Position numbers and translations under genes: made by a program. 64,000 nt of DNA from an uncultured Eubacteriales bacterium (lineage in GTDB: Bacteria > Bacillota > Clostridia > Christensenellales > CAG-1252): assembly GCA_902797685.1 (NCBI GenBank), contig CADBTQ010000007.1, positions 7,290 through 71,289 on the forward strand, written 5' to 3'. Under the pieces are notes generated by a model, which worked only from the letters and a program-made list of their open reading frames with translations, was not told the origin of the DNA and made no database searches. Below, in pieces: positions 10,185 to 53,250 of the stretch; within the stretch, counting starts at the first letter, position 1, and each line of letters begins with the position of its first letter.

Positions 10185-11042
10185 ATGATACTGTTAGACG
10201 GCAAACAAACGGCAAAAGCCGTAAGAGAGAAGATCAAAATCTGCGCCCAAGAGGCGATGGCTAAGTGGGGCGACCCCATTACGTTGGCGGTGATACTGGT
10301 CGGGGAAGACCCCGCCAGTCAAGTGTACGTGGGCAACAAGATCAAAGGTTGCGCCCAAGTGGGATTCGAGTCCCGCAAGGTGGTGCTGCCCGAGACGGCG
10401 AGCCAAGAGGAAGTCGCCGCGTCTATCCGCGCCCTCAACGCCGACCCCTCGGTACACGGGGTGCTGTTGCAGCTGCCTCTGCCCAAGCATCTCGACGAGC
10501 AGGCGTTGCTCGCCTTGATCGACCCCGACAAGGACGTGGACGGACTGCATATCGTACAGCGGGGCAGACTGTTTTGCGGCTTGCCTTCTCTACTCCCTTG
10601 CACCCCCTTTGGGATCATGAAACTGTTGGAGACCTACGGGATCGATCCCGCGGGCAAGCGCGCGGTCGTGATCGGGCGCAGTAATTTGGTGGGCAAACCC
10701 TTGGCGATGATGCTCCTCAACGCCAACGCCACCGTGACCGTGTGCCACAGCCGCACCCTCGATCTACCCTCGGTGACCAAAGAGGCGGATATCCTCGTCG
10801 CGGCGGTGGGCAAACCCAACTTTGTGACGGCGGACATGGTCAAAGAAGGGGCGATCGTCATCGACGTGGGCATCAACCGCGTGGACGGCAAATTGGTGGG
10901 AGACGTCGATTACGACGAGGTCGCCCCCAAGTGTTCGTATATCACTCCCGTGCCGGGCGGCGTGGGACCCATGACCGTGACCATGTTGCTCGCCAACACC
11001 CTGAAGGCGTACGAAAACGTACACGCGATTGCCGCGCAATGA
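10185..11042 (+). CDS. folD: Bifunctional methylene-THF dehydrogenase / methenyl-THF cyclohydrolase
   Basis: 285 aa: [17 protein letters not shown]...[14 protein letters not shown]...[13 protein letters not shown]. Adjacent to fhs. Confidence 0.92.
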
Positions 11043-11292
11043 TATAGGCAAAGCCTATGATATACCCTTGGGGATATGATATAGACCTTCGGTCAATGAT
11101 ATACGGCTACGCCGCATGATATACGACCTACGGCCGTATTGCGGATAAAATCGAATAGATGGACTATTTGTCAAATCAAATAGACACCAAAATATCCCTC
11201 GAGGACTCGTCCCCGAGGGATATATCATATTCGAGCGCCGCTCGAATATATCATACCGCTTTGCGGTATATCATAGGCGCAGCCTATCTCAT
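11039..11292. repeat. Modular hairpin-array element, copy A1 (ATGATATA left arm / conserved core / TATATCAT right arm)
   Basis: ATGATATA occurs at 11039, 11057, 11076, 11096 and 11116, each followed by a different 3-5 bp GC stem with a 3-nt loop. The core contains TATTGCGGATAAA...TTTGTCAAATC...AATATCCCTCG. TATATCAT occurs at 11221, 11247 and 11267 (degenerate at 11285), separated by longer hairpins. Homologous copies lie at 48175-48447 and 52959-53250. Confidence 0.85.
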
Positions 11293-11305
11293 TGTGTCGA
11301 AGGCA

Positions 11306-28586: not shown

Positions 28587-28713
28587 ATTGCTGACGCAAT
28601 GCGATATATCTGTTGTCACAGATGCGATATATCCGCAGTCTCGGATGCGATATATCTGTTGTCACAGATGCGATATATTGCTAACGCAATGCGATATATC
28701 TTGCAAGCAAGAT
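28587..28713. repeat. Hairpin array B-left: 5 x GCGATATAT linkers alternating with 12-14 nt hairpins (period 21-23 bp)
   Basis: GCGATATAT occurs at 28601, 28624, 28647, 28670 and 28691. The hairpins are ATTGC-tgac-GCAAT, ATCTGT-tgtc-ACAGAT (twice), ATCCG-cagtct-CGGAT, ATTGC-taac-GCAAT and ATCTTGC-aa-GCAAGAT. Confidence 0.85.
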
Positions 28714-28743
28714 GTAGTGGGTCGCTTTGCTCCGAAAGATCGG

Positions 28744-29103
28744 TCAGTTTTCGCCGTTCTTTTTGGCAGTAGTCACGGAAGCGATCAATTTCCTACGTAT
28801 CGTACCGCACTTATTGAACAGCGATTTGTAACGATCGGGCGATAGCGCGCCGGTCTTGTACAATATCTCCAACCAATACTCCGTTTCGTAGCACTCCTTA
28901 AGCGCGATTTCCATTTTGTTGATAAAATCGGCGCGACTTTGTGCATAAAACCCTTCGTGTGCGTTGGCGCCGATGGAAGAACAGGCGCGAAGCAGTTGGT
29001 TGACGAAGATAGCCTTCCCTTGGATGTGTTCACAAAGCATTGTCAACTCCACCGTCAAATCAACCGCCAACTCTTTGATCGTTTTGTCTTGAGTCATCGC
29101 CAT
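28744..29103 (-). CDS. Four-helix-bundle protein (23S rRNA intervening-sequence protein / Avd family)
   Basis: 119 aa: ..VNQLLRACSSIGANAHEGFYAQSRADFINKMEIALKECYETEYWLEILYK.. matches the remembered family pattern (QLxRAxxSIxANIxEG...DFxxKxxIAxKExxETxYWLxLL). The start was placed at MAMTQDK. The 183-aa ORF-track version runs into the right hairpin array. Confidence 0.78.
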   Translation of the reverse strand: MAMTQDKTIKELAVDLTVELTMLCEHIQGKAIFVNQLLRACSSIGANAHEGFYAQSRADFINKMEIALKECYETEYWLEILYKTGALSPDRYKSLFNKCGTIRRKLIASVTTAKKNGEN

Positions 29104-29121
29104 CTTTCCATTATCCACAGC

Positions 29122-29228
29122 ATCTCCCTTAGGAGATATATCGCGCCGAAGGTATATCGCACGCAAAGCGTATCTCGCAAATCCGCTCTGCGGATTTATC
29201 TCGCCGCAAGCGTGCTCTGCACGCTTGC
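29122..29228. repeat. Hairpin array B-right: AT(A/C)TCGC linkers (reverse complement of the B-left linker) alternating with hairpins
   Basis: The linker occurs at 29138, 29154, 29172 and 29198. The hairpins are ATCTCC-ctt-AGGAGAT, ACGC-aaa-GCGT, AAATCCGC-tct-GCGGATTT and GCAAGCGTGC-tct-GCACGCTTGC. The last abuts the proS stop codon. Confidence 0.8.
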
Positions 29229-40012: not shown

Positions 40013-40112
40013 GCCATTGACGGCGCACGTTCCATTGGGTACAATAGAGTAGGATACTATGAACGCAAGCACTTATACCATACCCCCATATAGCGACGAG
40101 TACCTTGCCCAA
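40013..40112 (+). repeat. Promoter+leader repeat R1 (100 bp; 3 mismatches to 41393-41492)
   Basis: Aligned by eye with an offset of exactly 1380 bp. Mismatches at 40031, 40091 and 40094. Confidence 0.9.
40017..40045 (+). promoter_or_regulatory. Near-consensus promoter TTGACG-N17-TACAAT inside R1
   Basis: Hexamers read directly. An ATG lies 13 nt after the -10. Confidence 0.55.
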
Positions 40113-40163
40113 TTTGATTGGATAGAAGCACTTAATCGGCTTTTCTTCGCAGGAAAAATGTAA
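40059..40163 (+). CDS. Possible 34-aa leader peptide, variant 1 (MNASTYTIPPYSDEYLAQ-FDWIEALNRLFFAGKM)
   Basis: Hand-translated. It shares its first 18 codons with 41439..41612. No SD sequence and an almost leaderless position; coding status is uncertain. Confidence 0.25.
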   Translation: MNASTYTIPPYSDEYLAQFDWIEALNRLFFAGKM

Positions 40164-40184
40164 TTCGGAGGGATATATAGAATC

Positions 40185-40526
40185 ATGAGTACTAATCCAA
40201 CAGACAACATGAGATATTGGCTTGTGATCCCCTTTATGGGCTTGTTTGTTGCGCATAGGCGCAGCATGCAATATTTGCAGTACAAACGACGTTATGATAG
40301 CAATATGGCAAAGAAGCAAATACTCAATATGCTTCTATGCGTCCTCACTGGCGTCATTACAATGGTCGGTTTTACGATAGCGATCGCTTTTTTGATACGT
40401 CTTTGGGTAAATGAGCCATTAAAATGGGGAAAGCTTATCGTTATGATCGGATCCCTGATCGGGGGTTGGTGCGCCGGTTTGCCATGTATAGGGTGGCTTG
40501 CCTATATCAAAAAAATGTGTTTGTAA
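40185..40526 (+). CDS. Small membrane protein, unknown function (113 aa)
   Basis: The ORF track protein has about three hydrophobic helices. GGAGGG lies upstream. The region is AT-richer. Confidence 0.55.
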   Translation: MSTNPTDNMRYWLVIPFMGLFVAHRRSMQYLQYKRRYDSNMAKKQILNMLLCVLTGVITMVGFTIAIAFLIRLWVNEPLKWGKLIVMIGSLIGGWCAGLPCIGWLAYIKKMCL

Positions 40527-40616
40527 AAGAGGTGTTATCATGAAGTATATTTTACTTCATTCTTGTCTTATTTATCATATCAGGGGCTCAATCAAATCAA
40601 TTGGGGGTTTTGATAT

Positions 40617-41339
40617 ATGGATAGGCTTTATATGTGGGTAATCTCGTCGGCGGTGGTCGTTTTGTCAAGCATCATTTTTGCGAAGACCAACAAGCGTAAG
40701 CCGCCCGAAGGAGTGGCAAACAAATATCGCGTGAAAGATACCTCGGTATTGCGCAAGTTGTTACATTTCAGGGATACCGAGCAGGAAGTGCACACGTATT
40801 TTACCGTGCTTCCCCCTTATCTCGCATTATTGGTGGCGATAGGTTGCTTGGTGATTTGGGGTGTGGATATGGGGACTAACCATGCTATAGAATCCAAACT
40901 GCCGAAAAGTGCCATCGTGGGGTTTTGGGTGTCATGGATGCTCGTGTGTGTGCTATACTACCTCGTTCTTTTTGTGTGGTGGGATATGGCTCGCACCAAA
41001 ACCCGTTCGACCAATCGCGAAGTGATCAAAATGGGGTTAGCCTTTGCCAAACAGGCAAAAAAAGCGAAAGGGGAGCAAGATGAGCTTTTTTTGGACAACC
41101 TTGTCGAAGGGAAAGATTTTGATTTTGAATGGGAGCGCAACCGCTATTACGTAAGGCATATCGACGGGGAGATGGGCGGTCCTGTGCAACTGTTTCGTCG
41201 GGAAGAAAGGGGCAAAACCTTGCTTGCGACTTACCAATCCCCTGCCGAGTTGTTGGTCGAAGGCGAGATAGGCGGACAGCCAATAGGGGATATTTATACG
41301 CAATGTAACGTTGTGCGGACGTATTCTCGCAAGGAGTAG
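40617..41339 (+). CDS. Membrane protein with a soluble C-terminal domain, unknown function (240 aa)
   Basis: TM segments WVISSAVVVLSSIIF, LPPYLALLVAIGCLVIWGV and IVGFWVSWMLVCVLYYLVLFVWW, followed by a charged soluble C-terminus. Confidence 0.6.
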   Translation: MDRLYMWVISSAVVVLSSIIFAKTNKRKPPEGVANKYRVKDTSVLRKLLHFRDTEQEVHTYFTVLPPYLALLVAIGCLVIWGVDMGTNHAIESKLPKSAIVGFWVSWMLVCVLYYLVLFVWWDMARTKTRSTNREVIKMGLAFAKQAKKAKGEQDELFLDNLVEGKDFDFEWERNRYYVRHIDGEMGGPVQLFRREERGKTLLATYQSPAELLVEGEIGGQPIGDIYTQCNVVRTYSRKE

Positions 41340-41392
41340 TCCAACTGTATATTGATTATACCGCTATTATCCTTTGTAGTTTGCAGGATACT

Positions 41393-41517
41393 GCCATTGA
41401 CGGCGCACGTCCCATTGGGTACAATAGAGTAGGATACTATGAACGCAAGCACTTATACCATACCCCCATACAGTGACGAGTACCTTGCCCAAGTGGCAAG
41501 GGTGGTTGGGGTGGCGC
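41393..41517 (+). repeat. Promoter+leader repeat R2 (left 100 bp = R1; right 59 bp = R3)
   Basis: 41393-41492 matches R1. 41459-41517 matches 44105-44163 with 4 mismatches. Confidence 0.9.
41397..41425 (+). promoter_or_regulatory. Second copy of the TTGACG-N17-TACAAT promoter
   Basis: Same hexamers as in R1. Confidence 0.55.
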
Positions 41518-41612
41518 TATTGTTGCTGTTGCATATGTACCTCAAGCGTGTCCCGTGGTCACATCAGTTGCCTTTTTTGTTGACATATATGAAAAACTAC
41601 GTAAATTGCTAG
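41439..41612 (+). CDS. Possible 57-aa leader peptide, variant 2 (MNASTYTIPPYSDEYLAQ-VARVVGVALLLLLHMYLKRVPWSHQLPFLLTYMKNYVNC)
   Basis: Hand-translated. Hydrophobic middle segment. Below the ORF-track size cut-off. Confidence 0.25.
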   Translation: MNASTYTIPPYSDEYLAQVARVVGVALLLLLHMYLKRVPWSHQLPFLLTYMKNYVNC

Positions 41613-41625
41613 CGGAGGTGTTCGC

Positions 41626-42540
41626 ATGACAATACAATATACACTTGACGATAAAAAACGTAGACGGTTATTCCAACAAATACTGTGGACACATATCAAA
41701 GCAGTGTTCATACTATTTTGCATAGCACTTGTTGTCGGTGTTGTCTGCATCGGCATTGGCTTTGGACTCAATTATCGCAACTTGTGGATAGATGGTCTTG
41801 CTTTTGTCGGGTTGGCATTCCTACTGGCGTGGATCTGCTTGGGCCATTACGCCAATGACAAGCAGTATATCTTGGGAGAGCGCAAAGGGACAAAACAATA
41901 TGAGTTGACTATCGACGAGGGTACCGTTCAACTTCTGGAGATGGACAGTGGGGTACTGGTGCGTTATAACGAAAACGATTTGCGAGTCAAAATCAAAACG
42001 GCTGACGCGATATACTTGGTGTTTGATAGGACGCAGGTGTTGTATTTTCCTCGGTTGTCCGAGATTGAGACCGTTCTACCCGATCCGCCGACTCAATCTG
42101 CCAAGAAGCGGAACAAAAAACAAATCGCTATCCTTCTCATCGCCTTGGTGGTTACATTTGCAATTATCGGTGGTGCTATCGGTTTTCTTGTTGGCGAATC
42201 GATGCAAATGAAACGATATCTGTCGGACGATACCTATCAGCAGCTGGATTGTCGTATCGTGCAGGTCTATGAAGAGTCGGGAAAACTCTGTGTCACGGTA
42301 GACATTCTCAGCGAGGGTCAAGACTTGCAACCCATTGACGGAGCCTATCGATTTGCATTTGTATCCGAAGGTGCTCGGTCGGCGGGTCTCGAAACGGGAG
42401 ACGTCGTTACTATCAAAACCACACCAAAGCGAGGCAAAGTATTGAATGCCTATTTGGCGGCATATCTTGTCAAGAATGATGTGATATACGTGGACTTCGA
42501 GACAGGCAAACACGACGTATGGCTGTGGCAAATGCAATAA
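41626..42540 (+). CDS. Membrane protein, 2 TM + soluble domain + TM + soluble domain (YcxB/bPH-like architecture?) (304 aa)
   Basis: RBS GGAGG. TM helices AVFILFCIALVVGVVCIGIGFGL and GLAFVGLAFLLAWICLG, followed by ..YELTIDEGTVQLLE..IYLVFDRTQVLYFPR... The family call is from memory only. Confidence 0.55.
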   Translation: MTIQYTLDDKKRRRLFQQILWTHIKAVFILFCIALVVGVVCIGIGFGLNYRNLWIDGLAFVGLAFLLAWICLGHYANDKQYILGERKGTKQYELTIDEGTVQLLEMDSGVLVRYNENDLRVKIKTADAIYLVFDRTQVLYFPRLSEIETVLPDPPTQSAKKRNKKQIAILLIALVVTFAIIGGAIGFLVGESMQMKRYLSDDTYQQLDCRIVQVYEESGKLCVTVDILSEGQDLQPIDGAYRFAFVSEGARSAGLETGDVVTIKTTPKRGKVLNAYLAAYLVKNDVIYVDFETGKHDVWLWQMQ

Positions 42541-42594
42541 TGTTCGTCAAGTCAACAAGCTGACGGAGTGGTGCTTTACTAGGAGTGATTGCTG

Positions 42595-43101
42595 ATGGAT
42601 AAAGTGGGGAGAATAAGAATGAACAAGCCAATATCTATAATCAAATCGGGGGATAAAGTAAACATAGAACTATTCGGGTCTACTGCCCCCGCGAATCTGA
42701 TCAATATAATGTCGCTCTTCTCATTTGAGTACCTCTTCGGCGAATTCTTTTCCGATCGGGACATCCCCAATGGCTATTGGGGGGATCATGAAAGACTGGT
42801 TAAACAATACATTGATTATAATAGACGAGGACACAAGATCATTAGAGTATGCGTGCCTCGTAGTGCGCTATCCCTTTTTATTAACTTGACGGATGCGCTG
42901 CAAACGACTATAAGCGGAACTATCGGCGAAGCGACTGACTGGGATGAATATCTTAATACTCATCAGGTGTGTGGTTCTCCCCTTACTTTTGTTTGGAATG
43001 ACAATTACAGTTCGTGCATAACTTTTGATCGCAAGCTCTATTCGCCTCAAAAGTTGATAACGGAAATACAATCCTTGCATTGGATAGAAGAAAACGTTTA
43101 A
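42595..43101 (+). CDS. Soluble protein of unknown function (168 aa)
   Basis: ORF track 42589..43101. The ATG at 42595 sits 9 nt after AGGAG. No motif recognised. Confidence 0.55.
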   Translation: MDKVGRIRMNKPISIIKSGDKVNIELFGSTAPANLINIMSLFSFEYLFGEFFSDRDIPNGYWGDHERLVKQYIDYNRRGHKIIRVCVPRSALSLFINLTDALQTTISGTIGEATDWDEYLNTHQVCGSPLTFVWNDNYSSCITFDRKLYSPQKLITEIQSLHWIEENV

Positions 43102-43107
43102 GATCGT

Positions 43108-44052
43108 ATGATTAGATTCAAAGGGATATTATCGGAAGAATGTCGTAAAGAGCGATCGCTTCGGGTTTATAAGAATCTTTTGGTCATGGGCTGGTTTGGC
43201 GTCGTCTTTATGACGGCAACAGGCGTGATCCTATGTGTGCTCAAACACACGTGGTACCCTATTATATTATCTTTGATCGGGGTCATCGGTTTGATTGGTG
43301 TGTACATAACAAAAAATAAGAATTCCGCACGTGTATATACGGTTATCGAGATCGACAATGAGTTTATCAGCGTTTTGGCGTTAGGGACGACGCGTCGCCC
43401 CGTTTCCGACGTCGATAGGGTTATCGACAGAGGCGGTTGGTATTATATCCTTTTCAAAAGAGGAGATTATACTAATAGCGTCACATGTGAGAAGAGTCTA
43501 ATAGTTGATGGGACGCTTCAGGAGTTTGAAAGCATATTTTTGGGAAAGGTCGTTACCGAAACCGATCCAAAAACTCAACCTTTAACACCCGAAGCCATAG
43601 CAAAAGAATTGTTCTTTGACAATAACGGAAATATCGAGCGCATGAAAAACAACGGATCGTTTGAGAGAATCCAACAATGTCATATCGACGATAACACGAT
43701 TCGCTTATGGAAGCAGGAGATAAAACTGAACTTACACCGCGTGATCTCGCACTGCAAAGGAAGCACGCGTGTCCATAATGTCGAAGACTACTTGTTGTTG
43801 GCGAACGAAGAAGAAAGAAGAACTCTATTGGCTCAACTCATCATCGACAAACAGATCGATAGTTTTTCACGGCTGCGCTTTTGCGAAATGGCTAAATGCT
43901 ACGTTACAGAGGATGTGTCCTTTTTGCAACTGCTCGAACAGGGGAAGGATATGATCGAGCGGGATCCATATAATATCGATATGTCGTTTTACAAAGAGTA
44001 TCCTAACACTGACTTGAGAGAGCAAACAAAACATCGCGTTAGCTTGCTATAA
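43108..44052 (+). CDS. Membrane protein, 2 TM + soluble domains (YcxB/bPH-like N-terminal architecture?) (314 aa)
   Basis: TM helices LLVMGWFGVVFMTATGVILCVL and PIILSLIGVIGLIGVYI, followed by ..YTVIEIDNEFISVLA..WYYILFKRGDY.. Confidence 0.55.
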   Translation: MIRFKGILSEECRKERSLRVYKNLLVMGWFGVVFMTATGVILCVLKHTWYPIILSLIGVIGLIGVYITKNKNSARVYTVIEIDNEFISVLALGTTRRPVSDVDRVIDRGGWYYILFKRGDYTNSVTCEKSLIVDGTLQEFESIFLGKVVTETDPKTQPLTPEAIAKELFFDNNGNIERMKNNGSFERIQQCHIDDNTIRLWKQEIKLNLHRVISHCKGSTRVHNVEDYLLLANEEERRTLLAQLIIDKQIDSFSRLRFCEMAKCYVTEDVSFLQLLEQGKDMIERDPYNIDMSFYKEYPNTDLREQTKHRVSLL

Positions 44053-44072
44053 GCTCGTAAACCGTACGTCAA

Positions 44073-44231
44073 ATGTCAGTAGATCAAAATAAAAAATGCA
44101 TAGTCATACCCCCATACAGCGACGAGTACCTTGCCCAAGTGGCAAGGGTTGTTGGTGTGGCACTCCTCGCCCGCGGCGTTTACGACGCTTGGGGCAACCA
44201 TAAGGTGCTCAATCCCGACGGAAGAGTTTGA
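44073..44231 (+). CDS. Possible 52-aa small protein, variant 3 (MSVDQNKKCIV-IPPYSDEYLAQVARVVGVALLARGVYDAWGNHKVLNPDGRV)
   Basis: Hand-translated. It shares IPPYSDEYLAQ with variants 1 and 2, and VARVVGVALL with variant 2. A terminator follows it. Confidence 0.3.
   Translation: MSVDQNKKCIVIPPYSDEYLAQVARVVGVALLARGVYDAWGNHKVLNPDGRV
44105..44163 (+). repeat. Repeat R3 (lacks the promoter part)
   Basis: 59 bp matching 41459-41517 with 4 mismatches. Confidence 0.85.
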
Positions 44232-48131: not shown

Positions 48132-48174
48132 TACCCATTTTTGCAAAAGTTGCGAAAAAACGCATTTTTTTGCG

Positions 48175-48447
48175 ATGAGATAGACCCTCGGTCAATGATA
48201 TATCGGCAAGCCGATATATGATATACGCCTTAGTCGTATTGCGGATAAAGCTATCAGACGTGTCATTTGTCAAATCGATCAAACACCACAATATCCCTCG
48301 GAGGCTTTGCCCTCGAGGGATATATCCTGTTCGAGCGCGGCTCGAATATATCATACCGCAGTGCGGTATATCATAGGCAAAGCCTATCTTATTGCCTTTG
48401 GCTTGCCAACGGCAGTGCGGTATATCGTATCACACGTGATCTATCAT
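48175..48447. repeat. Modular hairpin-array element, copy A2
   Basis: Same core (TATTGCGGATAAA..TTTGTCAAATC..AATATCCCTCG) and right-arm hairpins as A1 and A3. The left arm has 3 hairpin modules. Confidence 0.85.
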
Positions 48448-48546
48448 CTCCCCGCGGCTTCGGAACGTTTTTTTCTCTGTGAACGATAAGGGGAACACGG
48501 GTGGATTATTCCTTTTTTGGTTTATATTTTTTTTCTCAAAAAAGGG

Positions 48547-48575
48547 TTGCTTTTTTTACTTGCTCGCCGTATAAT
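48547..48575 (+). promoter_or_regulatory. Putative promoter TTGCTT-N17-TATAAT for the lipoprotein/surface-protein module
   Basis: Hexamers read directly, about 90 nt upstream of the ATG at 48667. Confidence 0.45.
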
Positions 48576-48666
48576 GTTGAGGCTGTCCCCGATTTCGGAC
48601 GAAAAAAAGCAATGTGTGCGACAAAAAAGTCGTGTTTTTTGCTTTGTAAAATATATGGAGGAAAAT

Positions 48667-49218
48667 ATGACAAAAATCAACAAAATAACGATTATTCTCT
48701 TGCTGCTTGTTTTTTGCGCGCTCTGTTCCTTTGGGCTTGTCGGATGCAGGAGCAAAGCACCTAGCGACCAGAGTTATTGGTATGGGACGTACAAGTATGA
48801 CGCGTCCTTAACTCGTGTTATTATTGAAATAGAAGGTGATGACTCTTCCAAGACAGGGATGTTAAGCACTTTGCGCCAAGACGGAATAGATATAATCGCT
48901 TACGATGGTCTTCGTAATTATGATTTCGAGTGGGGCACGGATAATTACAGCCTATTACAGTGGGAAATAGAGAATATACAGCACGACATCATCGTAAATA
49001 AAAAAGGATTTCATATGGGGCACGGGATCATGCAATGGGCTGAGCGGGAGTTTATTTCCGAGTTATCCAAGGATCCCGCAAGCATACGAAGCGTAAGTTG
49101 CCTTGGTCTTGGTTCGTTCGACCAGTTGGCGGTTCGATATAGTGTCGTATTGCCGATCACTTTGCCTAAGGGCAATATGACGATTAAGTTTTTCGTGGAC
49201 TACATAAAAGCAAAATAG
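48667..49218 (+). CDS. Lipoprotein of unknown function (183 aa)
   Basis: MTKINKITIILLLLVFCALCSFGLVGCRS lipobox. The ATG at 48667 lies 5 nt after GGAGG. The ORF-track start at 48517 is upstream of the promoter. Confidence 0.7.
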   Translation: MTKINKITIILLLLVFCALCSFGLVGCRSKAPSDQSYWYGTYKYDASLTRVIIEIEGDDSSKTGMLSTLRQDGIDIIAYDGLRNYDFEWGTDNYSLLQWEIENIQHDIIVNKKGFHMGHGIMQWAEREFISELSKDPASIRSVSCLGLGSFDQLAVRYSVVLPITLPKGNMTIKFFVDYIKAK

Positions 49219-49247
49219 CAGCGTCCACGGTGATAAGAGGTAGAAAA

Positions 49248-52200
49248 ATGACAATTAAGCATAAAATGAGTGGTATCATAACTGTTTTATCTATACTGAT
49301 TACGGTGTTGGTAATTTCCTCTGCGGGAAGTGAAGCGACCGCTTCCGCTGACGACATCTTTACTCCTGATGATGAATTTGTTTATTGTGTTACAAAGGAC
49401 GGCGTAGGCTTATGGAATTATATTGAAGAATATAATGAATGTGAAATTGCGGTATCGGAATTAATTACGCATTATAATATCAATATTGGTCAAACATTCG
49501 GTAACGGTGTTATTATACAAAACATGTCTACTGCACACAGTTTAGTATGTTCGCAGGATGATAACATAGTTAAGTTTGTACCTAAGACTGCTTTCATCAA
49601 CGTTGGCACGGTAATGCATATCGGTGAGGACTATGGGTTTGTCATCAAAACCACTGTGGATACAGATCCTGATAATTCGAGTAGGCACTATAATCGTAGT
49701 ACTGTCATTATTATAAAGAACGAAAGCCATTGGCAAGGTGATATGTTTTGTATAAAACTAACTGTTTGCGCTACTATTGATTACTTCTGTTTTGATCAAA
49801 GTGGCGTCGTTGCTCTTTTGCAGGAAGTAGATGATGGTAGCAATATAGGGCGTATTACCTCAACGAAATGGAACTTGATCAAGAGTGCGGGCGTAGACGG
49901 TTGGGTTGTGGTGCCGGCTATACGTTTATATAACGTAGACACTTATGGACATCCCATTGTTACAGTTGCAAAATCCAATAACCTGACGTTAAGTAATCTT
50001 TCGATTGGGTCACGTATCTATAATTTGCAGAGTTATAATACATGGGATTCGGAATATGACCCCAACACGGACGACGGATATTATTTGATCGGTGCGCAAT
50101 ATTTTTATCAAGTAACACAAAAACATGGTGAGTGGAATACCCAAAGCAGCGTTGTAGGGATGGTTAAAGAGTTTGGGAAGATTGCTTTGGGTGCACTTGT
50201 TGATACGGTCGCTGATTATTTGAATTTGTCCTCTCTGAATACGTTTTATGAAGCAAGTGAAGGTTTGCTTGCGCTGACCGGACAAATACAAACGGTCCAA
50301 GATGTACACTTGACAAACAATGAAAACGGTTTGGTGTATCCCGATTTCGCTTATGCAGGGGTTAATACTCGAACCAATCAAATCGCTCAATTCGGGCGGT
50401 TAGTAAAAGATAGCAGTATGCTCTTTGACCAAACAGCCGGAATATTATGCTATGGTAAGGACGAGTACATAGAGGCAAGGTTTAATTATTCTCATACGGA
50501 TGGCAAAGCTGAGCCCACAAGGTTGGATTTGTCAGTGGGTGGATTGGTAATCGACAACCGAGAGGGTGGCGGTAATGACGCAGTAGTTAACGAGGCACAA
50601 CTATTTACTTATAAGAATTGCGGGGCGAGCATTGCGCCTTCTCTTTCTCTTAATCTATGCCAAAGTAGAATCTATTACGCAATTTATGATAGTGCAATAC
50701 CTTCCTATGTCTTTACCCCCACGTATAATGGTACCTATGCGTTGCAGTTGGACGGAAATGTCGGCACGGTGGAGATAGACGGGCAAGTGGCGTCGGGTAA
50801 CAACGGCTGTTACCTTTTCGAGGGCATTGCCAACACGCCTGTCAACATAGTATTGCGTCCATCGGGTGACACTATCATCAAAGGCACGTTGTCGATAGAC
50901 GTCCATCAAGGCGCGCAGGCTTTTCCGTCCAACCAGACGAGAATTACCAAGATCGACATTCCTACGGACGGCATCTATGCGGCGTGCAATAACTCTTTGC
51001 AAGTAAATGCGTTACTCAAAAGCGACTTTTCGGAGTATCGAGCGGGAGGGGTCGGTTGGTCGGACACGGCGAATATGATCCCGCTGCCCGCCGGCACCTA
51101 TTATTTGCTCGTCGACAACGATACAGACCATAGTATAGAGGCAGGAACTTTCTTAGAGAAGGTAACGTCCAACAACTTGGTGTCGTCTGTGGCGAAGTCG
51201 GTATCATTGACCGACAAGTATTCATTTTACCGCGCGTCGGCGGAGCGAGACAAAGGATATTGTATCGCCCCCCAAAACGAATCGTTATCTCCCGTGTACT
51301 ATACTTTTGTTGATTCAACGTTTTGTAGTTTTTCGCCTATGGCGGTAGGCGGCAACTATGCTCGCATTAGTTCACAACCTATCGATACTTATTATTACGT
51401 GGGTGTGAGGCTGTATGAAGGCATAGCAGACGCGCAACTATTGTGGAAGCAAGACGCGGGCAGCGGTGCGTGGCTCGTCGACGGGGCGTCTGTCGGCACG
51501 CATTGTTCGTTGGAGCGCAATCGTTCTTATACAATCTCGTATTTTCATAATGGGCAATATACCGTGTCGGACATTGATTTGGACGGGAGCTCGTCGCCTA
51601 ATTTCAATTTGGTAAACAACACGTTTACCATATTGCCTACGGCGGATTTGGGGCAGACCTTCGTGCTGCGGGCGCAAGCCGGTCTCGGCGCACATTACGA
51701 TTGTCAACTGACCATTACGACAGTACGAGAGAACAAGATATCGCTATCCGCAACAAACACGGCGACCGCTTGTGCCGTCAATTGGACGGCGCTGTTGCCG
51801 GGGATTACCGAATTTGACGTTGAATTATACGGGGATTCAACCGGCACGCACGCCGTTAGGACCGTAACGACCGACGGGGCGATGAGCGGCACCGTCAACT
51901 TGCTCTCAATGACCGGTACTCACTATACGCGTGCCGTGGTACGCAGAGTCGTGTTTGAGGGGAGATCAAACGTAGGCGATAGCTATGAGACTGCGATTGA
52001 CAACTGGTTCGGCGGCGGATCGGGCGTGGAGAATGCACCGTATTTGATTAAAAATATACGGCACTTTAATAACATTTACCATGCCAACGCCGCTTATTAC
52101 AAACAAACGGTGCATTTGAATTTCGGCGGTACGGCACCGCGGGCGGGCGTAACCTTCAACGGCAATTACAATGGCAACAATAAACGGATATCCGGTATCG

Positions 52201-52901
52201 TTCGCACCGTCACTATGACGGCTAGCAGCCCGACGTCAGGCAGTTTCGGCGGGTTGTTTGATATTTGCGGTGGCACTATTCGGGGCATTTCGTCGTACGT
52301 CGCGACAGTAAGTGTTACTGTTTATAACGTGCTATCCGCTTATCATATCGGCGGCGTTGTCGGCACTATGACGGAGGGTAGTTCCATTGCGGGATTAATG
52401 TTTGCCACTACGGTGTCGAGCAACACGCATAGCGCATATGGCACTATCGGCGGTGTGGCGGGATTGTCCGGTGGCGTGGTATCTGCGTTAGCATTCGGCT
52501 CCATCAATTTGAGCGGTTGCGGCAATATGGGCGGCATCGTTGGGCACAATTGTGCGAGCGGTCGAGTGAGCGGCGGGTTGGTAGACACCCAAGTTAATTT
52601 TCGTGTATATTCCGGATTCAGTCCCAATATCGGCGGCGCGGTAGGGCTCAACGAAGGATACGTTCATACGTCATTGGAAGCGAATATTACGGTAGTAGGG
52701 AGCATGGACTCCATTTTGTTGAGGAAATGCACCCCTCGGGTGGGAATACTGGTTGGATATAATCACTTGGGCACGGTGACCCACGGCGAGTTGGACGATA
52801 CGTGTTCGATAGACGTTTCGTCGCTGACCGGCGCAACCTTGACGTATGCGACGGGCGCGGCGATCGGACGAGACGAACCAGCGCCCGAGCAAAACGGATA
52901 A
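49248..52901 (+). CDS. Large secreted/surface protein (1217 aa) with PPC-like beta domains and C-terminal GLUG-like glycine-rich repeats
   Basis: Signal peptide MTIKHKMSGIITVLSILITVLVISSAGSEATASA. ..LPAGTYYLLVDNDTD.. is PPC-like. Repeated GGVVG/GGVAG/GGIVGHN/GGAVGLN units near the C-terminus are GLUG-like. No LPXTG motif was seen. Confidence 0.7.
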   Translation: MTIKHKMSGIITVLSILITVLVISSAGSEATASADDIFTPDDEFVYCVTKDGVGLWNYIEEYNECEIAVSELITHYNINIGQTFGNGVIIQNMSTAHSLVCSQDDNIVKFVPKTAFINVGTVMHIGEDYGFVIKTTVDTDPDNSSRHYNRSTVIIIKNESHWQGDMFCIKLTVCATIDYFCFDQSGVVALLQEVDDGSNIGRITSTKWNLIKSAGVDGWVVVPAIRLYNVDTYGHPIVTVAKSNNLTLSNLSIGSRIYNLQSYNTWDSEYDPNTDDGYYLIGAQYFYQVTQKHGEWNTQSSVVGMVKEFGKIALGALVDTVADYLNLSSLNTFYEASEGLLALTGQIQTVQDVHLTNNENGLVYPDFAYAGVNTRTNQIAQFGRLVKDSSMLFDQTAGILCYGKDEYIEARFNYSHTDGKAEPTRLDLSVGGLVIDNREGGGNDAVVNEAQLFTYKNCGASIAPSLSLNLCQSRIYYAIYDSAIPSYVFTPTYNGTYALQLDGNVGTVEIDGQVASGNNGCYLFEGIANTPVNIVLRPSGDTIIKGTLSIDVHQGAQAFPSNQTRITKIDIPTDGIYAACNNSLQVNALLKSDFSEYRAGGVGWSDTANMIPLPAGTYYLLVDNDTDHSIEAGTFLEKVTSNNLVSSVAKSVSLTDKYSFYRASAERDKGYCIAPQNESLSPVYYTFVDSTFCSFSPMAVGGNYARISSQPIDTYYYVGVRLYEGIADAQLLWKQDAGSGAWLVDGASVGTHCSLERNRSYTISYFHNGQYTVSDIDLDGSSSPNFNLVNNTFTILPTADLGQTFVLRAQAGLGAHYDCQLTITTVRENKISLSATNTATACAVNWTALLPGITEFDVELYGDSTGTHAVRTVTTDGAMSGTVNLLSMTGTHYTRAVVRRVVFEGRSNVGDSYETAIDNWFGGGSGVENAPYLIKNIRHFNNIYHANAAYYKQTVHLNFGGTAPRAGVTFNGNYNGNNKRISGIVRTVTMTASSPTSGSFGGLFDICGGTIRGISSYVATVSVTVYNVLSAYHIGGVVGTMTEGSSIAGLMFATTVSSNTHSAYGTIGGVAGLSGGVVSALAFGSINLSGCGNMGGIVGHNCASGRVSGGLVDTQVNFRVYSGFSPNIGGAVGLNEGYVHTSLEANITVVGSMDSILLRKCTPRVGILVGYNHLGTVTHGELDDTCSIDVSSLTGATLTYATGAAIGRDEPAPEQNG

Positions 52902-52958
52902 GCTTGCGTCGAATCGGTACACAGCCGCCAACACACCTGCGGCAGTGATTGCTTCACA

Positions 52959-53250
52959 ATGATATAGCCTATGGCTATGATATATCCCTTTGGGATATGA
53001 TATAGACCTTCGGTCAATGATATACGACCTATGGTCGTATTGCGGATAAAACTATTAGATAGGTGATTTATCAAATCAATCAAACCACACAATATCCCTC
53101 GGAGGCTTTGCCCTCGAGGGATATATCCTATTCGAGCCCTGCTCGAATATATCATACCGCTTAGCGGTATATCATAGGCACTGCCTATCTCATTGCCTTT
53201 GGCAAGCCATAGGCAGTGCGGTATATCATATCCCGTGGGGGATATATCAT
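52959..53250. repeat. Modular hairpin-array element, copy A3
   Basis: ATGATATA modules with ATAGCC-tat-GGCTAT, CCC-ttt-GGG, GACC-ttc-GGTC and CGACC-tat-GGTCG. The core and right arm are nearly identical to A2. Confidence 0.85.

Follow-up and report, generated by a model that had tools for sequence, protein, structure and literature searches.

A Gut-1-type two-armed hairpin array between folD and pmbA, with a four-helix-bundle protein as candidate partner of its relatives

What is the run of short hairpins that lies between the convergent genes folD and pmbA of an uncultured Eubacteriales bacterium, does it belong to a known family, and what might read it? The intergenic gap of 263 nt, from the folD stop TGA (11040-11042) to the pmbA stop (11306), holds an element that we call A1. 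All positions, unless a locus is named, are those of the window, the 64-kb stretch of contig CADBTQ010000007.1 that was analyzed. The reading that seems secure is that A1 is a gene-less copy of a two-armed hairpin array of the Gut-1 type, a known but uncharacterized kind of element rather than a new class. Relatives of A1 are found directly upstream of a gene encoding a four-helix-bundle protein, and this pairing offers a candidate reader. The parts of A1 are as follows.

11037-11294, the A1 element, 258 nt, one of three ATGATATA-rich elements in the 64-kb window
11037-11136, plus strand, A1 left arm: five modules, each ATGATATA and a variable G+C hairpin
11137-11191, A1 core, 55 nt, containing GTATTGCGGATAAA, with TTGACA on the minus strand
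11192-11223, minus strand, A1 central 14-bp hairpin, ATATCCCTCGAGG..CCCCGAGGGATAT
11221-11294, plus strand, A1 right arm: three modules, each a hairpin and TATATCAT, with a terminal TATCTCATTG

The left arm contains exact ATGATATA octamers starting at 11039, 11057, 11076, 11096 and 11116 (spacing 18, 19, 20 and 20 nt) together with hairpins that are all different: GGCaaaGCC, CCCttgGGG, GACCttcGGTC, CGGCtacGCCG and CGACCtacGGcCG, the fifth having a single A.C mismatch. The initial annotation, made from the letters alone, had described five octamers at 18-20 bp spacing with five different mini-hairpins, and this description held almost to the base. The inverted right arm that it proposed, with a reverse-complement linker and longer hairpins, is likewise there in the sequence: the TATATCAT linkers are at 11221, 11247 and 11267 (motif located on the minus strand), the hairpins are TTCGAGCgccGCTCGAA, ACCGCtttGCGGT and AGGCgcaGCCT, and TATCTCATTG at 11294 closes the element. 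The two ends of A1 form an 11-bp inverted repeat, GCAATGATATA / TATCTCATTG(C). A core of about 75 bp without hairpins was roughly right, although the core measures 55 nt and is followed by the central 14-bp hairpin. The linkers had been regarded as short and unstructured. Short conserved parts do alternate with variable palindromes, but the A1 linker is mostly the conserved ATA/TAT foot of the neighboring hairpin, and its unpaired part is only ~3 nt (GAT).

On the minus strand the central hairpin is followed by TTTGGTGTCT. With UUUGGUGU 3' of it on that strand, this hairpin is the only terminator-like feature for pmbA, and folD has none; the central hairpin with its U-rich tail is a putative terminator of pmbA. 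A1-A3 share a candidate minus-strand promoter in the core, TTGACA-N17/18-(T/C)TTTAT; we rejected it, as the A at -11 is missing and two strains (L004 and L129) have lost this stretch. The folD stop codon (11040-11042) lies inside the first ATGATATA linker of A1, and the boundary of the array and the end of folD are thus interlocked in the window lineage. In a species with 84% identity, folD ends in TAA, 6 nt before the array. Pairs of adjacent linkers at a distance of 18 nt fit a sigma-70 promoter pattern (ATGATA-18-TATAyT, preceded by TG; window 11245-11274, L100 1600-1629, L115 3346-3375), so that each arm reads as a string of inward-facing promoter look-alikes.

The hairpin array is real and far from a chance feature. 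The ATGATATA octamer occurs 22 times in the window versus 0.72 expected (maximum 4 among 100 shuffles), and 20 of these 22 copies fall within A1, A2 and A3. Relative to dinucleotide shuffles, the whole of A1 has fold z-scores of -9.5 (plus-strand RNA), -9.7 (minus-strand RNA) and -7.5 (DNA parameters). The motif excess and the z-scores bear out the proposal of a single structured, modular and repeated non-coding element. The other two copies are:

48172-48452, plus strand, copy A2: array proper 48172-48395, then a tail with a partial extra module
52955-53250, plus strand, copy A3: array proper 52955-53196, then a tail with two more modules

A2 is located between a tetR-like gene (minus strand) and a low-GC cassette, whereas A3 is located between the end of a 1223-aa open reading frame (ORF) and the S10 ribosomal-protein operon.

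The sequence family had not been recognized in the initial annotation. However, scanning the window against Rfam at the gathering threshold gave a single match, Gut-1 (RF01706), in the left arm of A3 (53.8 bits, threshold 50). Both arms of A1 also match the Gut-1 model, below the gathering score of 50: the left arm with 47.1 bits (11055-11127, plus strand, E = 2.7e-8 locally) and the right arm with 42.1 bits (11217-11294, minus strand). Compact relatives, described below, score 54-63 bits. Other Rfam families gave only chance-level matches to the arrays (His leader, microRNAs, CRISPR-DR). As in Gut-1, there are at least three tandem hairpins, a conserved G-[AUG]-G/A-A-[AU]-A-U linker and stems supported by covariation. 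Gut-1 was described in 2010 by Weinberg et al. as a likely non-coding RNA, originally known only from human gut metagenomes, with no sequenced organism and no function, and not tied to mRNAs (PMC2864571). A clear match to a described family of known function was one outcome that the initial annotation had named as refuting it; this applies only by half, as the family is described but its function is unknown.

The arrays and Gut-1 share tandem short G+C hairpins with a conserved purine-rich linker (GUGAAAU/GUGAUAU there, UGAUAUA here), a gut and rumen habitat and the lack of a known function, and the Gut-1 covariance model matches both arms of A1-A3. They differ in that Rfam models three hairpins of one arm as a small RNA (sRNA) in the GAxAU sense, whereas here there are two arms and a core, the window type having a long variable core and the central 14-bp hairpin. 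The flanks in the original Gut-1 alignment contain a second, inverted arm, separated from the first by a short core, and some of them also show, upstream, the 3' end of a tRNA and a terminator. The Rfam model seems to take in no more than one half of the element and may be on the wrong strand.

To find relatives we scanned a one-genome-per-species collection for three ATGATATA repeats at module spacing; L numbers of loci are given only where needed. There are at least 118 triple-repeat loci, a few of which are unrelated tandem repeats, and nearly all carriers among the matches listed are metagenome-assembled genomes of gut or rumen Clostridia (Acutalibacteraceae, Oscillospiraceae, Faecousia, 'Eubacteriales'). 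The three window copies are therefore not merely a local duplication, an outcome that the initial annotation had also entertained. Two inverted hairpin arms are present in 58 of the listed loci, most of which have a compact element of ~165 nt, (TTTC)AA-[TGATATA + hairpin]x3-TGATATAATATCCGTTCC-[hairpin + TATATCA]x3-CCGTTCCnnnnGGAACGGATATCATTG, with terminal inverted repeats (TTTC)AATGATAT ... ATATCATT(GAAA).

In 25 compact arrays RNAalifold gave 54 pairs, 16 of them with double compensatory changes and all 16 in local hairpins (at one pair GC 11, CG 7 and UA 3; at another UA 12 and CG 10). The window type behaves similarly among three strains and a related species: module 1 is AGGC/GCCT, AGCC/GGCT or ACCGCG/CGCGGT, one right-arm module is CCGC/GCGG or CCCC/GGGG, and the central hairpin has four compensatory versions. 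Loops vary freely among copies while the stems are kept, which indicates that selection rather than recent copying maintains the stems. The hairpin structure of this array family is under selection. The module of ~20 nt consists of a 3-nt spacer, GAT, and a hairpin that has an invariant ATA...TAT foot and a paired G+C-rich top of free sequence, the top usually being C-G-closed around a loop of 3-4 nt with G..A on one strand. Two facing arms of 3-6 modules each, with a dispensable core between them, make up the array.

BLASTN of A1 against 72,556 plasmids gave no match. Among the inspected matches to viral contigs only one was a genuine array (L241, beside a tRNA), the rest being unrelated A+T-rich tandem repeats, and only four relatives of the four-helix-bundle protein introduced next were found there; hence, the family is not phage-borne.

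In 14 of the listed loci the TGATATA array is directly followed by a gene encoding a 117-aa protein that begins MSENKLLDLSFEFAV and belongs to PF05635 (23S rRNA intervening-sequence protein) and TIGR02436 (four helix bundle protein). A profile hidden Markov model built from these array-linked 117-aa proteins finds one homologue in the window, encoded at 28744-29103 on the minus strand (TIGR02436, 91 bits; PDB 2RLD, E = 2.7e-22, five chains). This gene has a fourth window array around it (28587-29228), of A1-like design with a variant GCGATAT-type linker, ATGCGATAT / TATATCGC.

28587-28712, plus strand, variant-linker array, arm 1: six hairpins with five GCGATATAT linkers between them
28744-29103, minus strand, four-helix-bundle gene, 119 aa, TIGR02436 / PF05635, Avd- and 23S-IVS-protein-like (IVS, intervening sequence)
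29122-29228, plus strand, variant-linker array, arm 2: five hairpins and four linkers (TATATCGC / TATCTCGC)

Arm 1 lies 3' of the gene, in the sense of the gene; arm 2, a weak Gut-1 match (25 bits), separates the start codon of the four-helix-bundle gene from a proS-like gene. The gene, bracketed in this way, stands between the proS-like gene and a phosphoribosyltransferase-domain gene.

Conversely, 80 metagenomic loci were picked solely by similarity to the window four-helix-bundle protein (47-73% identity). A periodic array lies directly upstream of the gene in 65 of the 72 loci having >200 nt of upstream sequence, and downstream in only 6 of 79. The linkers at these loci are GCGATAT, TCGATAT, GAGATAT, GTGAAAT (the Gut-1 consensus) and GTGATAT, and they track the protein clade. 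When 535 ORFs around arrays were clustered, the only recurrent families were helix-turn-helix proteins (8 loci) and the four-helix-bundle protein, for which PADLOC returned nothing. In the literature searched we found no report linking Gut-1 or such repeat arrays to the four-helix-bundle family or to the ends of tRNA operons.

A crystallized member of this protein family is a homopentameric toroid of four-helix bundles, and genes for this family occur in 23S rRNA intervening sequences, which have inverted repeats at their ends and have long been suspected to be selfish or mobile (PMC4990558). Its members are Avd-like, Avd being the accessory protein of diversity-generating retroelements (DGRs; PMC10053308). 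These retroelements are the only system in which an Avd protein is known to act, and their target sites need a DNA hairpin or cruciform having a G+C stem of free sequence and a 4-nt loop, 5'-GRNA, on one strand, and a GAAA to CTTT change in this loop abolishes function (PMC3240598).

Distant plasmid-encoded members of the family (32-48% identity) are found inside operons for resistance-nodulation-division efflux, hsdS/hsdR or DrmD/PglX; in four of the six cases inspected, the flanks hold tandem ~7-nt repeats in inverted arrays, in place of hairpin modules. The operon genes with flanking repeats are those of Treponema pTS1 (L336), Planktothrix p1 (L339), Chondrinema (L340) and Monoglobus (L337), and the repeats include GGTGAAAG / CTCTCCG; GATTGGG, GATTTAC / CCCCAAT, GTAAATC; and ACAGTGA / AACTGT. 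We take the cyanobacterial repeats to resemble the short tandemly repeated repetitive (STRR) heptamers of the older literature.

Many arrays are situated behind tRNA genes. In ~24 of 44 compact loci a tRNA of almost any identity ends 34-48 nt from the array and points at it, the gap being filled by a terminator hairpin, and in four further loci the tRNA is 210-245 nt away. By an orientation-blind census a tRNA points at the array within 330 nt in 33 of the 58 two-armed arrays. Co-oriented tRNA genes lie within 500 nt upstream in 20 of 57 metagenomic four-helix-bundle loci, and one compact array is located 3' of a 16S-23S-5S-tRNA operon, not inside it. In the compact loci the terminal TTGAAA of the array forms the -35 of a TTGAAA-N17-TATAAT promoter directed away from the array, and in 14 loci this predicted promoter would drive the 117-aa gene. 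No tRNA or transfer-messenger RNA genes were found in the window.

Four loci have an extra ~150-200 nt between the tRNA and the array (L006 4270-4600, L021 2640-2960, L081 2540-2840, L087 6470-6800), the order being tRNA, terminator, a stretch that ends in a second tRNA 3' end (...CACCA), a second terminator and the array. The extra stretch has the look of a scar left by integration, or of a small insert derived from a tRNA.

The array at folD varies among close relatives. All strains with a FolD protein of 98-100% identity have an array after folD, and its sequence differs between strains. In one strain (L004) the first stem is flipped, 25 nt of the core are deleted and 9 nt are inserted at the right end, whereas another (L214) has an extra module and a core of ~135 nt, and a related species has a core of ~20 nt. 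A species with 84% identical FolD (L212) has two tandem arrays after folD, and the neighbor is not pmbA. As the repeat unit there includes the last 9 nt of folD (AAAGGCTAA), this is a local duplication and not an insertion. Tandem arrangement of whole arrays is seen at L035 104-640 (three copies) and L212 3349-3815 (two copies). A relative with 70%-identical FolD has an ordinary terminator, no array and also a different neighboring gene.

How might these observations be put together? The reading we prefer, to which we would give slightly less than an even chance, is that A1 is the non-coding, partner-less array of a protein-plus-array module that works as a binding platform. The complete module, as judged from the gene neighborhoods, would be an array immediately upstream of (occasionally around) an Avd-like gene, typically behind the terminator of a tRNA or rRNA operon. 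The hairpins would form in single-stranded nucleic acid, and the array would be a multivalent cis platform recognized by the four-helix-bundle ring through the foot and the G..A loop, not through stem sequence. Binding of the arrays by the protein is our proposal from co-location; the initial annotation had listed a protein-binding scaffold among the possible roles, and this role gains a concrete candidate because the arrays are the near-constant upstream neighbor of the TIGR02436/PF05635 gene. Gene-less copies (A1-A3) would arise by duplication or recombination and would persist at gene boundaries as passive structured 3' ends or insulators. A1 itself is probably a passive structured spacer or 3' boundary between folD and pmbA, where the central hairpin and U-rich tail would end pmbA transcripts.

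Would the single-stranded nucleic acid be DNA or RNA? The loops of 275 distinct modules are C-TNC-G and C-TNNC-G on the TGATAT strand, and C-GNA-G (GAA 25, GCA 22, AAA 17) and C-GNNA-G, the latter mostly non-GNRA, on the ATATCA strand. In DNA, GNA and GNNA loops with a C-G closing pair, d(cGNAg) and d(cGNNAg), are the textbook case of highly stable minihairpins, whereas RNA prefers GNRA. Wobble G.T pairs in the variable stem tops number 39 on the ATxTC-sense strand versus 16 on the other, with the same direction in all three linker families; over whole stems the count, which is affected by the conserved foot, is 41 versus 51. Such pairs are scarce (~2% of stem-top pairs). The strand favored by loops and wobble pairs is opposite to the orientation of the Rfam model and, as the arms are inverted, it differs between them, always reading outward from the core. 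Loop chemistry and the rarity of wobble pairs give a slight tilt to DNA hairpins, and DNA is also supported by where compact arrays lie, with a terminator on one side and a promoter on the other. By analogy, the hairpin precedent of the diversity-generating retroelements would count in the same direction. We lean slightly toward DNA hairpins, extruded or single-stranded, over RNA.

Several points weigh against the platform reading or against DNA as its substrate. A1, A2 and A3 have no adjacent four-helix-bundle gene, the gene is adjacent in only 14 of ~60 TGATATA arrays of the genome scan, and the only such gene in the window uses the GCGATAT linker, not TGATATA. The link between array and protein is one of co-location, and adjacent genes would be co-inherited under any model. 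No U-tract follows any hairpin on the plus strand of A1, making folD termination by A1 doubtful. That strains differ in the A1 core and in the number of modules is consistent with this particular copy being weakly constrained. The preference for DNA draws on general knowledge of loop chemistry, the low G.U frequency and the compact-array position. In the GCGATAT-type loci and at the window's own four-helix-bundle locus no promoter fits between the array and the ATG; hence, the arms there are necessarily transcribed, which weighs against DNA. RNA is also favored by the place of A1 in two 3' untranslated regions, and in Rfam Gut-1 is classed as an RNA that reads in the opposite direction.

If the hairpins do act as RNA, the array could be a stand-alone structured sRNA, one or both arms being transcribed from their own promoter and acting in trans, for example as a protein sponge with single-stranded GAU linkers. 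We consider this unlikely. It accords with the Rfam matches and with the judgment of the original Gut-1 authors that the motif is an RNA not tied to mRNAs (PMC2864571), and covariation supports the hairpins. In the compact type the innermost linker at one arm end, TGATATAAT, is an invariant and perfect extended -10 directed at a bidirectional terminator, and the wobble and loop biases fit RNAs read outward from the core. However, there is no -35 box, and the cores of the GTGAAAT type contain no -10-like sequence. At A1 the core, the only possible promoter site, is deleted or expanded between strains, and since A1 abuts two stop codons there is no room for promoters outside it. The rarity of G.U pairs in stem tops and the prevalence of triloops or non-GNRA GNNA loops also argue against an sRNA, as does a favored strand opposite to that of the Rfam model.

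The DNA hairpins could instead be those of a mobile element, and here the interval between tetR and the S10 operon is pertinent. This interval (window 48517-52901; L125 1748-2501; L129 6838-10001) has three alleles: a single A2-like array in L125; A2, a 4.5-kb low-GC cassette (ORFs of 233 and 1223 aa) and A3 in the window; and A2, a different low-GC cassette of 1.8 kb (three ORFs of 183-200 aa) and A3 in L129. Thus, variable DNA is bordered by arrays. For the cassette proteins neither Pfam nor PADLOC returned a family, and the only NCBIfam match, to the 1223-aa protein, was below threshold. Simple recombination between A2 and A3 was rejected as the origin of the cassette-free allele, since the junctions do not fit. 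A second low-GC block at 40100-44100 (GC 0.42-0.46 versus ~0.55; five ORFs of 113, 240, 304, 170 and 314 aa, none matching Pfam) has a UvrD-like helicase gene on one side, a DUF6937/DUF6938 gene on the other and no hairpin array at its edges; the equivalent place in L129 contains different small ORFs.

A non-autonomous mobile element of this kind would have its single-stranded DNA hairpins read by an unlinked RAYT/HUH enzyme or a recombinase, with any local function incidental, a reading that also strikes us as rather improbable. There are several copies per genome in unrelated contexts, an 11-bp terminal inverted repeat, tandem copies (L035, L212), and near-identical modules of terminator, array and promoter (plus or minus the gene) behind many tRNAs in different species. 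The loops match stable DNA minihairpin motifs, and A2 and A3 bracket a strain-variable cassette. Nevertheless, A1-A3 have no target-site duplication or flanking direct repeat, no pair of empty and filled sites was recovered, and the L212 tandem copy arose by local duplication and not by insertion. No transposase or integrase family was found among the 535 clustered neighboring ORFs (Pfam was run on selected ones only), and the pattern of differing loops with kept stems points to long-term selection rather than recent transposition.

The resemblance to 23S intervening sequences suggests a third explanation, that the linkers of the two arms, when both are part of one transcript, zip into a long branched duplex cut by RNase III or another nuclease, such that a cassette is excised or insulated. 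The minimum-free-energy fold of full-length A1 does pair both arms, the arm linkers are reverse-complementary in every linker family, distant TIGR02436 genes lie in operons flanked by inverted ~7-nt repeat arrays, and RNase III cleaves the terminal inverted repeats of those 23S intervening sequences that contain this ORF (PMC4990558). Still, such a processing stem is very unlikely: covariation supports local hairpins and not arm-to-arm pairs, linker complementarity is equally expected from inverted-repeat arms, and the outermost linkers of A1 and A3 have a U.C mismatch. Moreover, a single transcript across both arms is not expected in the compact loci given the terminator before the array and the promoter after it. 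Finally, double-stranded DNA binding sites (iteron- or operator-like) or promoter decoys in which 18-20-bp linkers mimic -35/extended -10 geometry are extremely unlikely, for although a promoter scan gives ATGATA-18-TATAyT with an upstream TG inside the arms at a spacing near two helical turns, a reader of double-stranded DNA would not require palindromic spacers kept by compensatory change, and families that retain one architecture have very different linkers (TGATATA, GCGATAT, GTGAAAT).

Returning to the platform reading, a broader form of it is possible but doubtful: Gut-1-type arrays would be the cognate ligand of free-standing Avd-like pentamers, the two parts making up a widespread selfish or regulatory module that settles at the 3' ends of stable-RNA operons and, in the form of intervening sequences, inside rRNA, and the gene-less copies would mark sites of cassette exchange. 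If this were true, G..A-looped DNA or RNA hairpins would be read as the target hairpins of diversity-generating retroelements are, and Gut-1 and the S23p/IVP family would each have a first function. Gut-1 has been an orphan motif since 2010 and the PF05635/TIGR02436 family an orphan since 1993, apart from its relative Avd, and the co-location of arrays, TIGR02436/PF05635 genes and tRNA operon ends makes the two orphan families jointly testable. What is new is the pairing of array and TIGR02436/PF05635 gene; A1 alone is of modest practical consequence.

How do the arrays compare with known systems? They are not clustered regularly interspaced short palindromic repeats (CRISPR), as the initial annotation had rightly argued: the conserved part is 7-8 nt, the spacers are palindromic and there are two inverted arms, rather than identical repeats of 23-50 nt with unique non-palindromic spacers, and the CRISPR-DR matches are weak and at chance level. 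Nor are there R''/R' core sites (GTTRRRY) of an integron attC in A1, or an integrase family among the clustered neighboring ORFs. Repetitive extragenic palindromic (REP) sequences and bacterial interspersed mosaic elements (BIME) of enterobacteria and pseudomonads, and BOX elements of pneumococci, are dispersed extragenic palindromes, single or clustered and in both orientations, which are often found at 3' ends and between convergent genes, have a variable number of units (boxB in BOX) and depend on the hairpin more than on exact sequence. The arrays share with them the dispersed modular extragenic palindromes, the gene-boundary positions and the precedence of hairpin over sequence, and the likeness in concept to REP/BIME that the initial annotation had seen is upheld. 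In contrast to REP/BIME, however, A1 has no GTAG-type 5' tetranucleotide, its units are ~20 nt and not ~35-45 nt, and the array stems vary between modules, only the A/T foot and the spacer being conserved. No RAYT or transposase family recurs among the 535 clustered ORFs near arrays, and none was found among the scanned window ORFs. The terminal inverted repeats expected of a miniature inverted-repeat transposable element are present in A1-A3 and in the compact arrays.

The 23S intervening sequences with S23p (Leptospira, Coxiella; PMC4990558) resemble the arrays in that a PF05635 gene lies within or beside an extensive inverted-repeat structure, this structure is joined to a stable-RNA operon, and the elements are regarded as selfish. 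They differ in that they occupy helix 25 or 45 inside the rRNA gene and have a simple long terminal stem cut by RNase III, whereas the arrays lie outside genes, usually behind a tRNA terminator, and have arms that are strings of independent hairpins. A1 is intergenic and without a PF05635 ORF, and A2, A3 and the window four-helix-bundle locus are likewise intergenic and not in a 23S rRNA gene; the combination of ORF and repeats is found at the 65 of 72 metagenomic loci and at window 28587-29228. Versions of the 23S intervening sequence without the ORF also exist. In type III toxin-antitoxin systems (ToxIN) a tandem array of structured repeats lies directly upstream of a small protein gene, and the complex of array and protein is the working unit. 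The placement of a short structured-repeat array directly upstream of a small protein gene is shared, but the four-helix-bundle protein is not a ToxN-like endoribonuclease, the repeats are non-identical and form two inverted arms, and the compact loci have a promoter and not only a terminator between array and gene.

Diversity-generating retroelements have one hairpin beside a variable repeat, together with a reverse transcriptase and a template repeat, whereas the arrays have 6-10 tandem hairpins; no reverse transcriptase family was found among the clustered neighboring ORFs, and no variable repeat at the arrays. The parallel is a close one, although Avd itself is not known to read the retroelement hairpin. 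What the target hairpin with Avd (PMC3240598; PMC10053308) and the arrays have in common is an Avd-type four-helix-bundle protein, a structure-dependent G+C stem of free sequence, and a short loop that on one strand begins with G and finishes with A, with a strand-specific effect.

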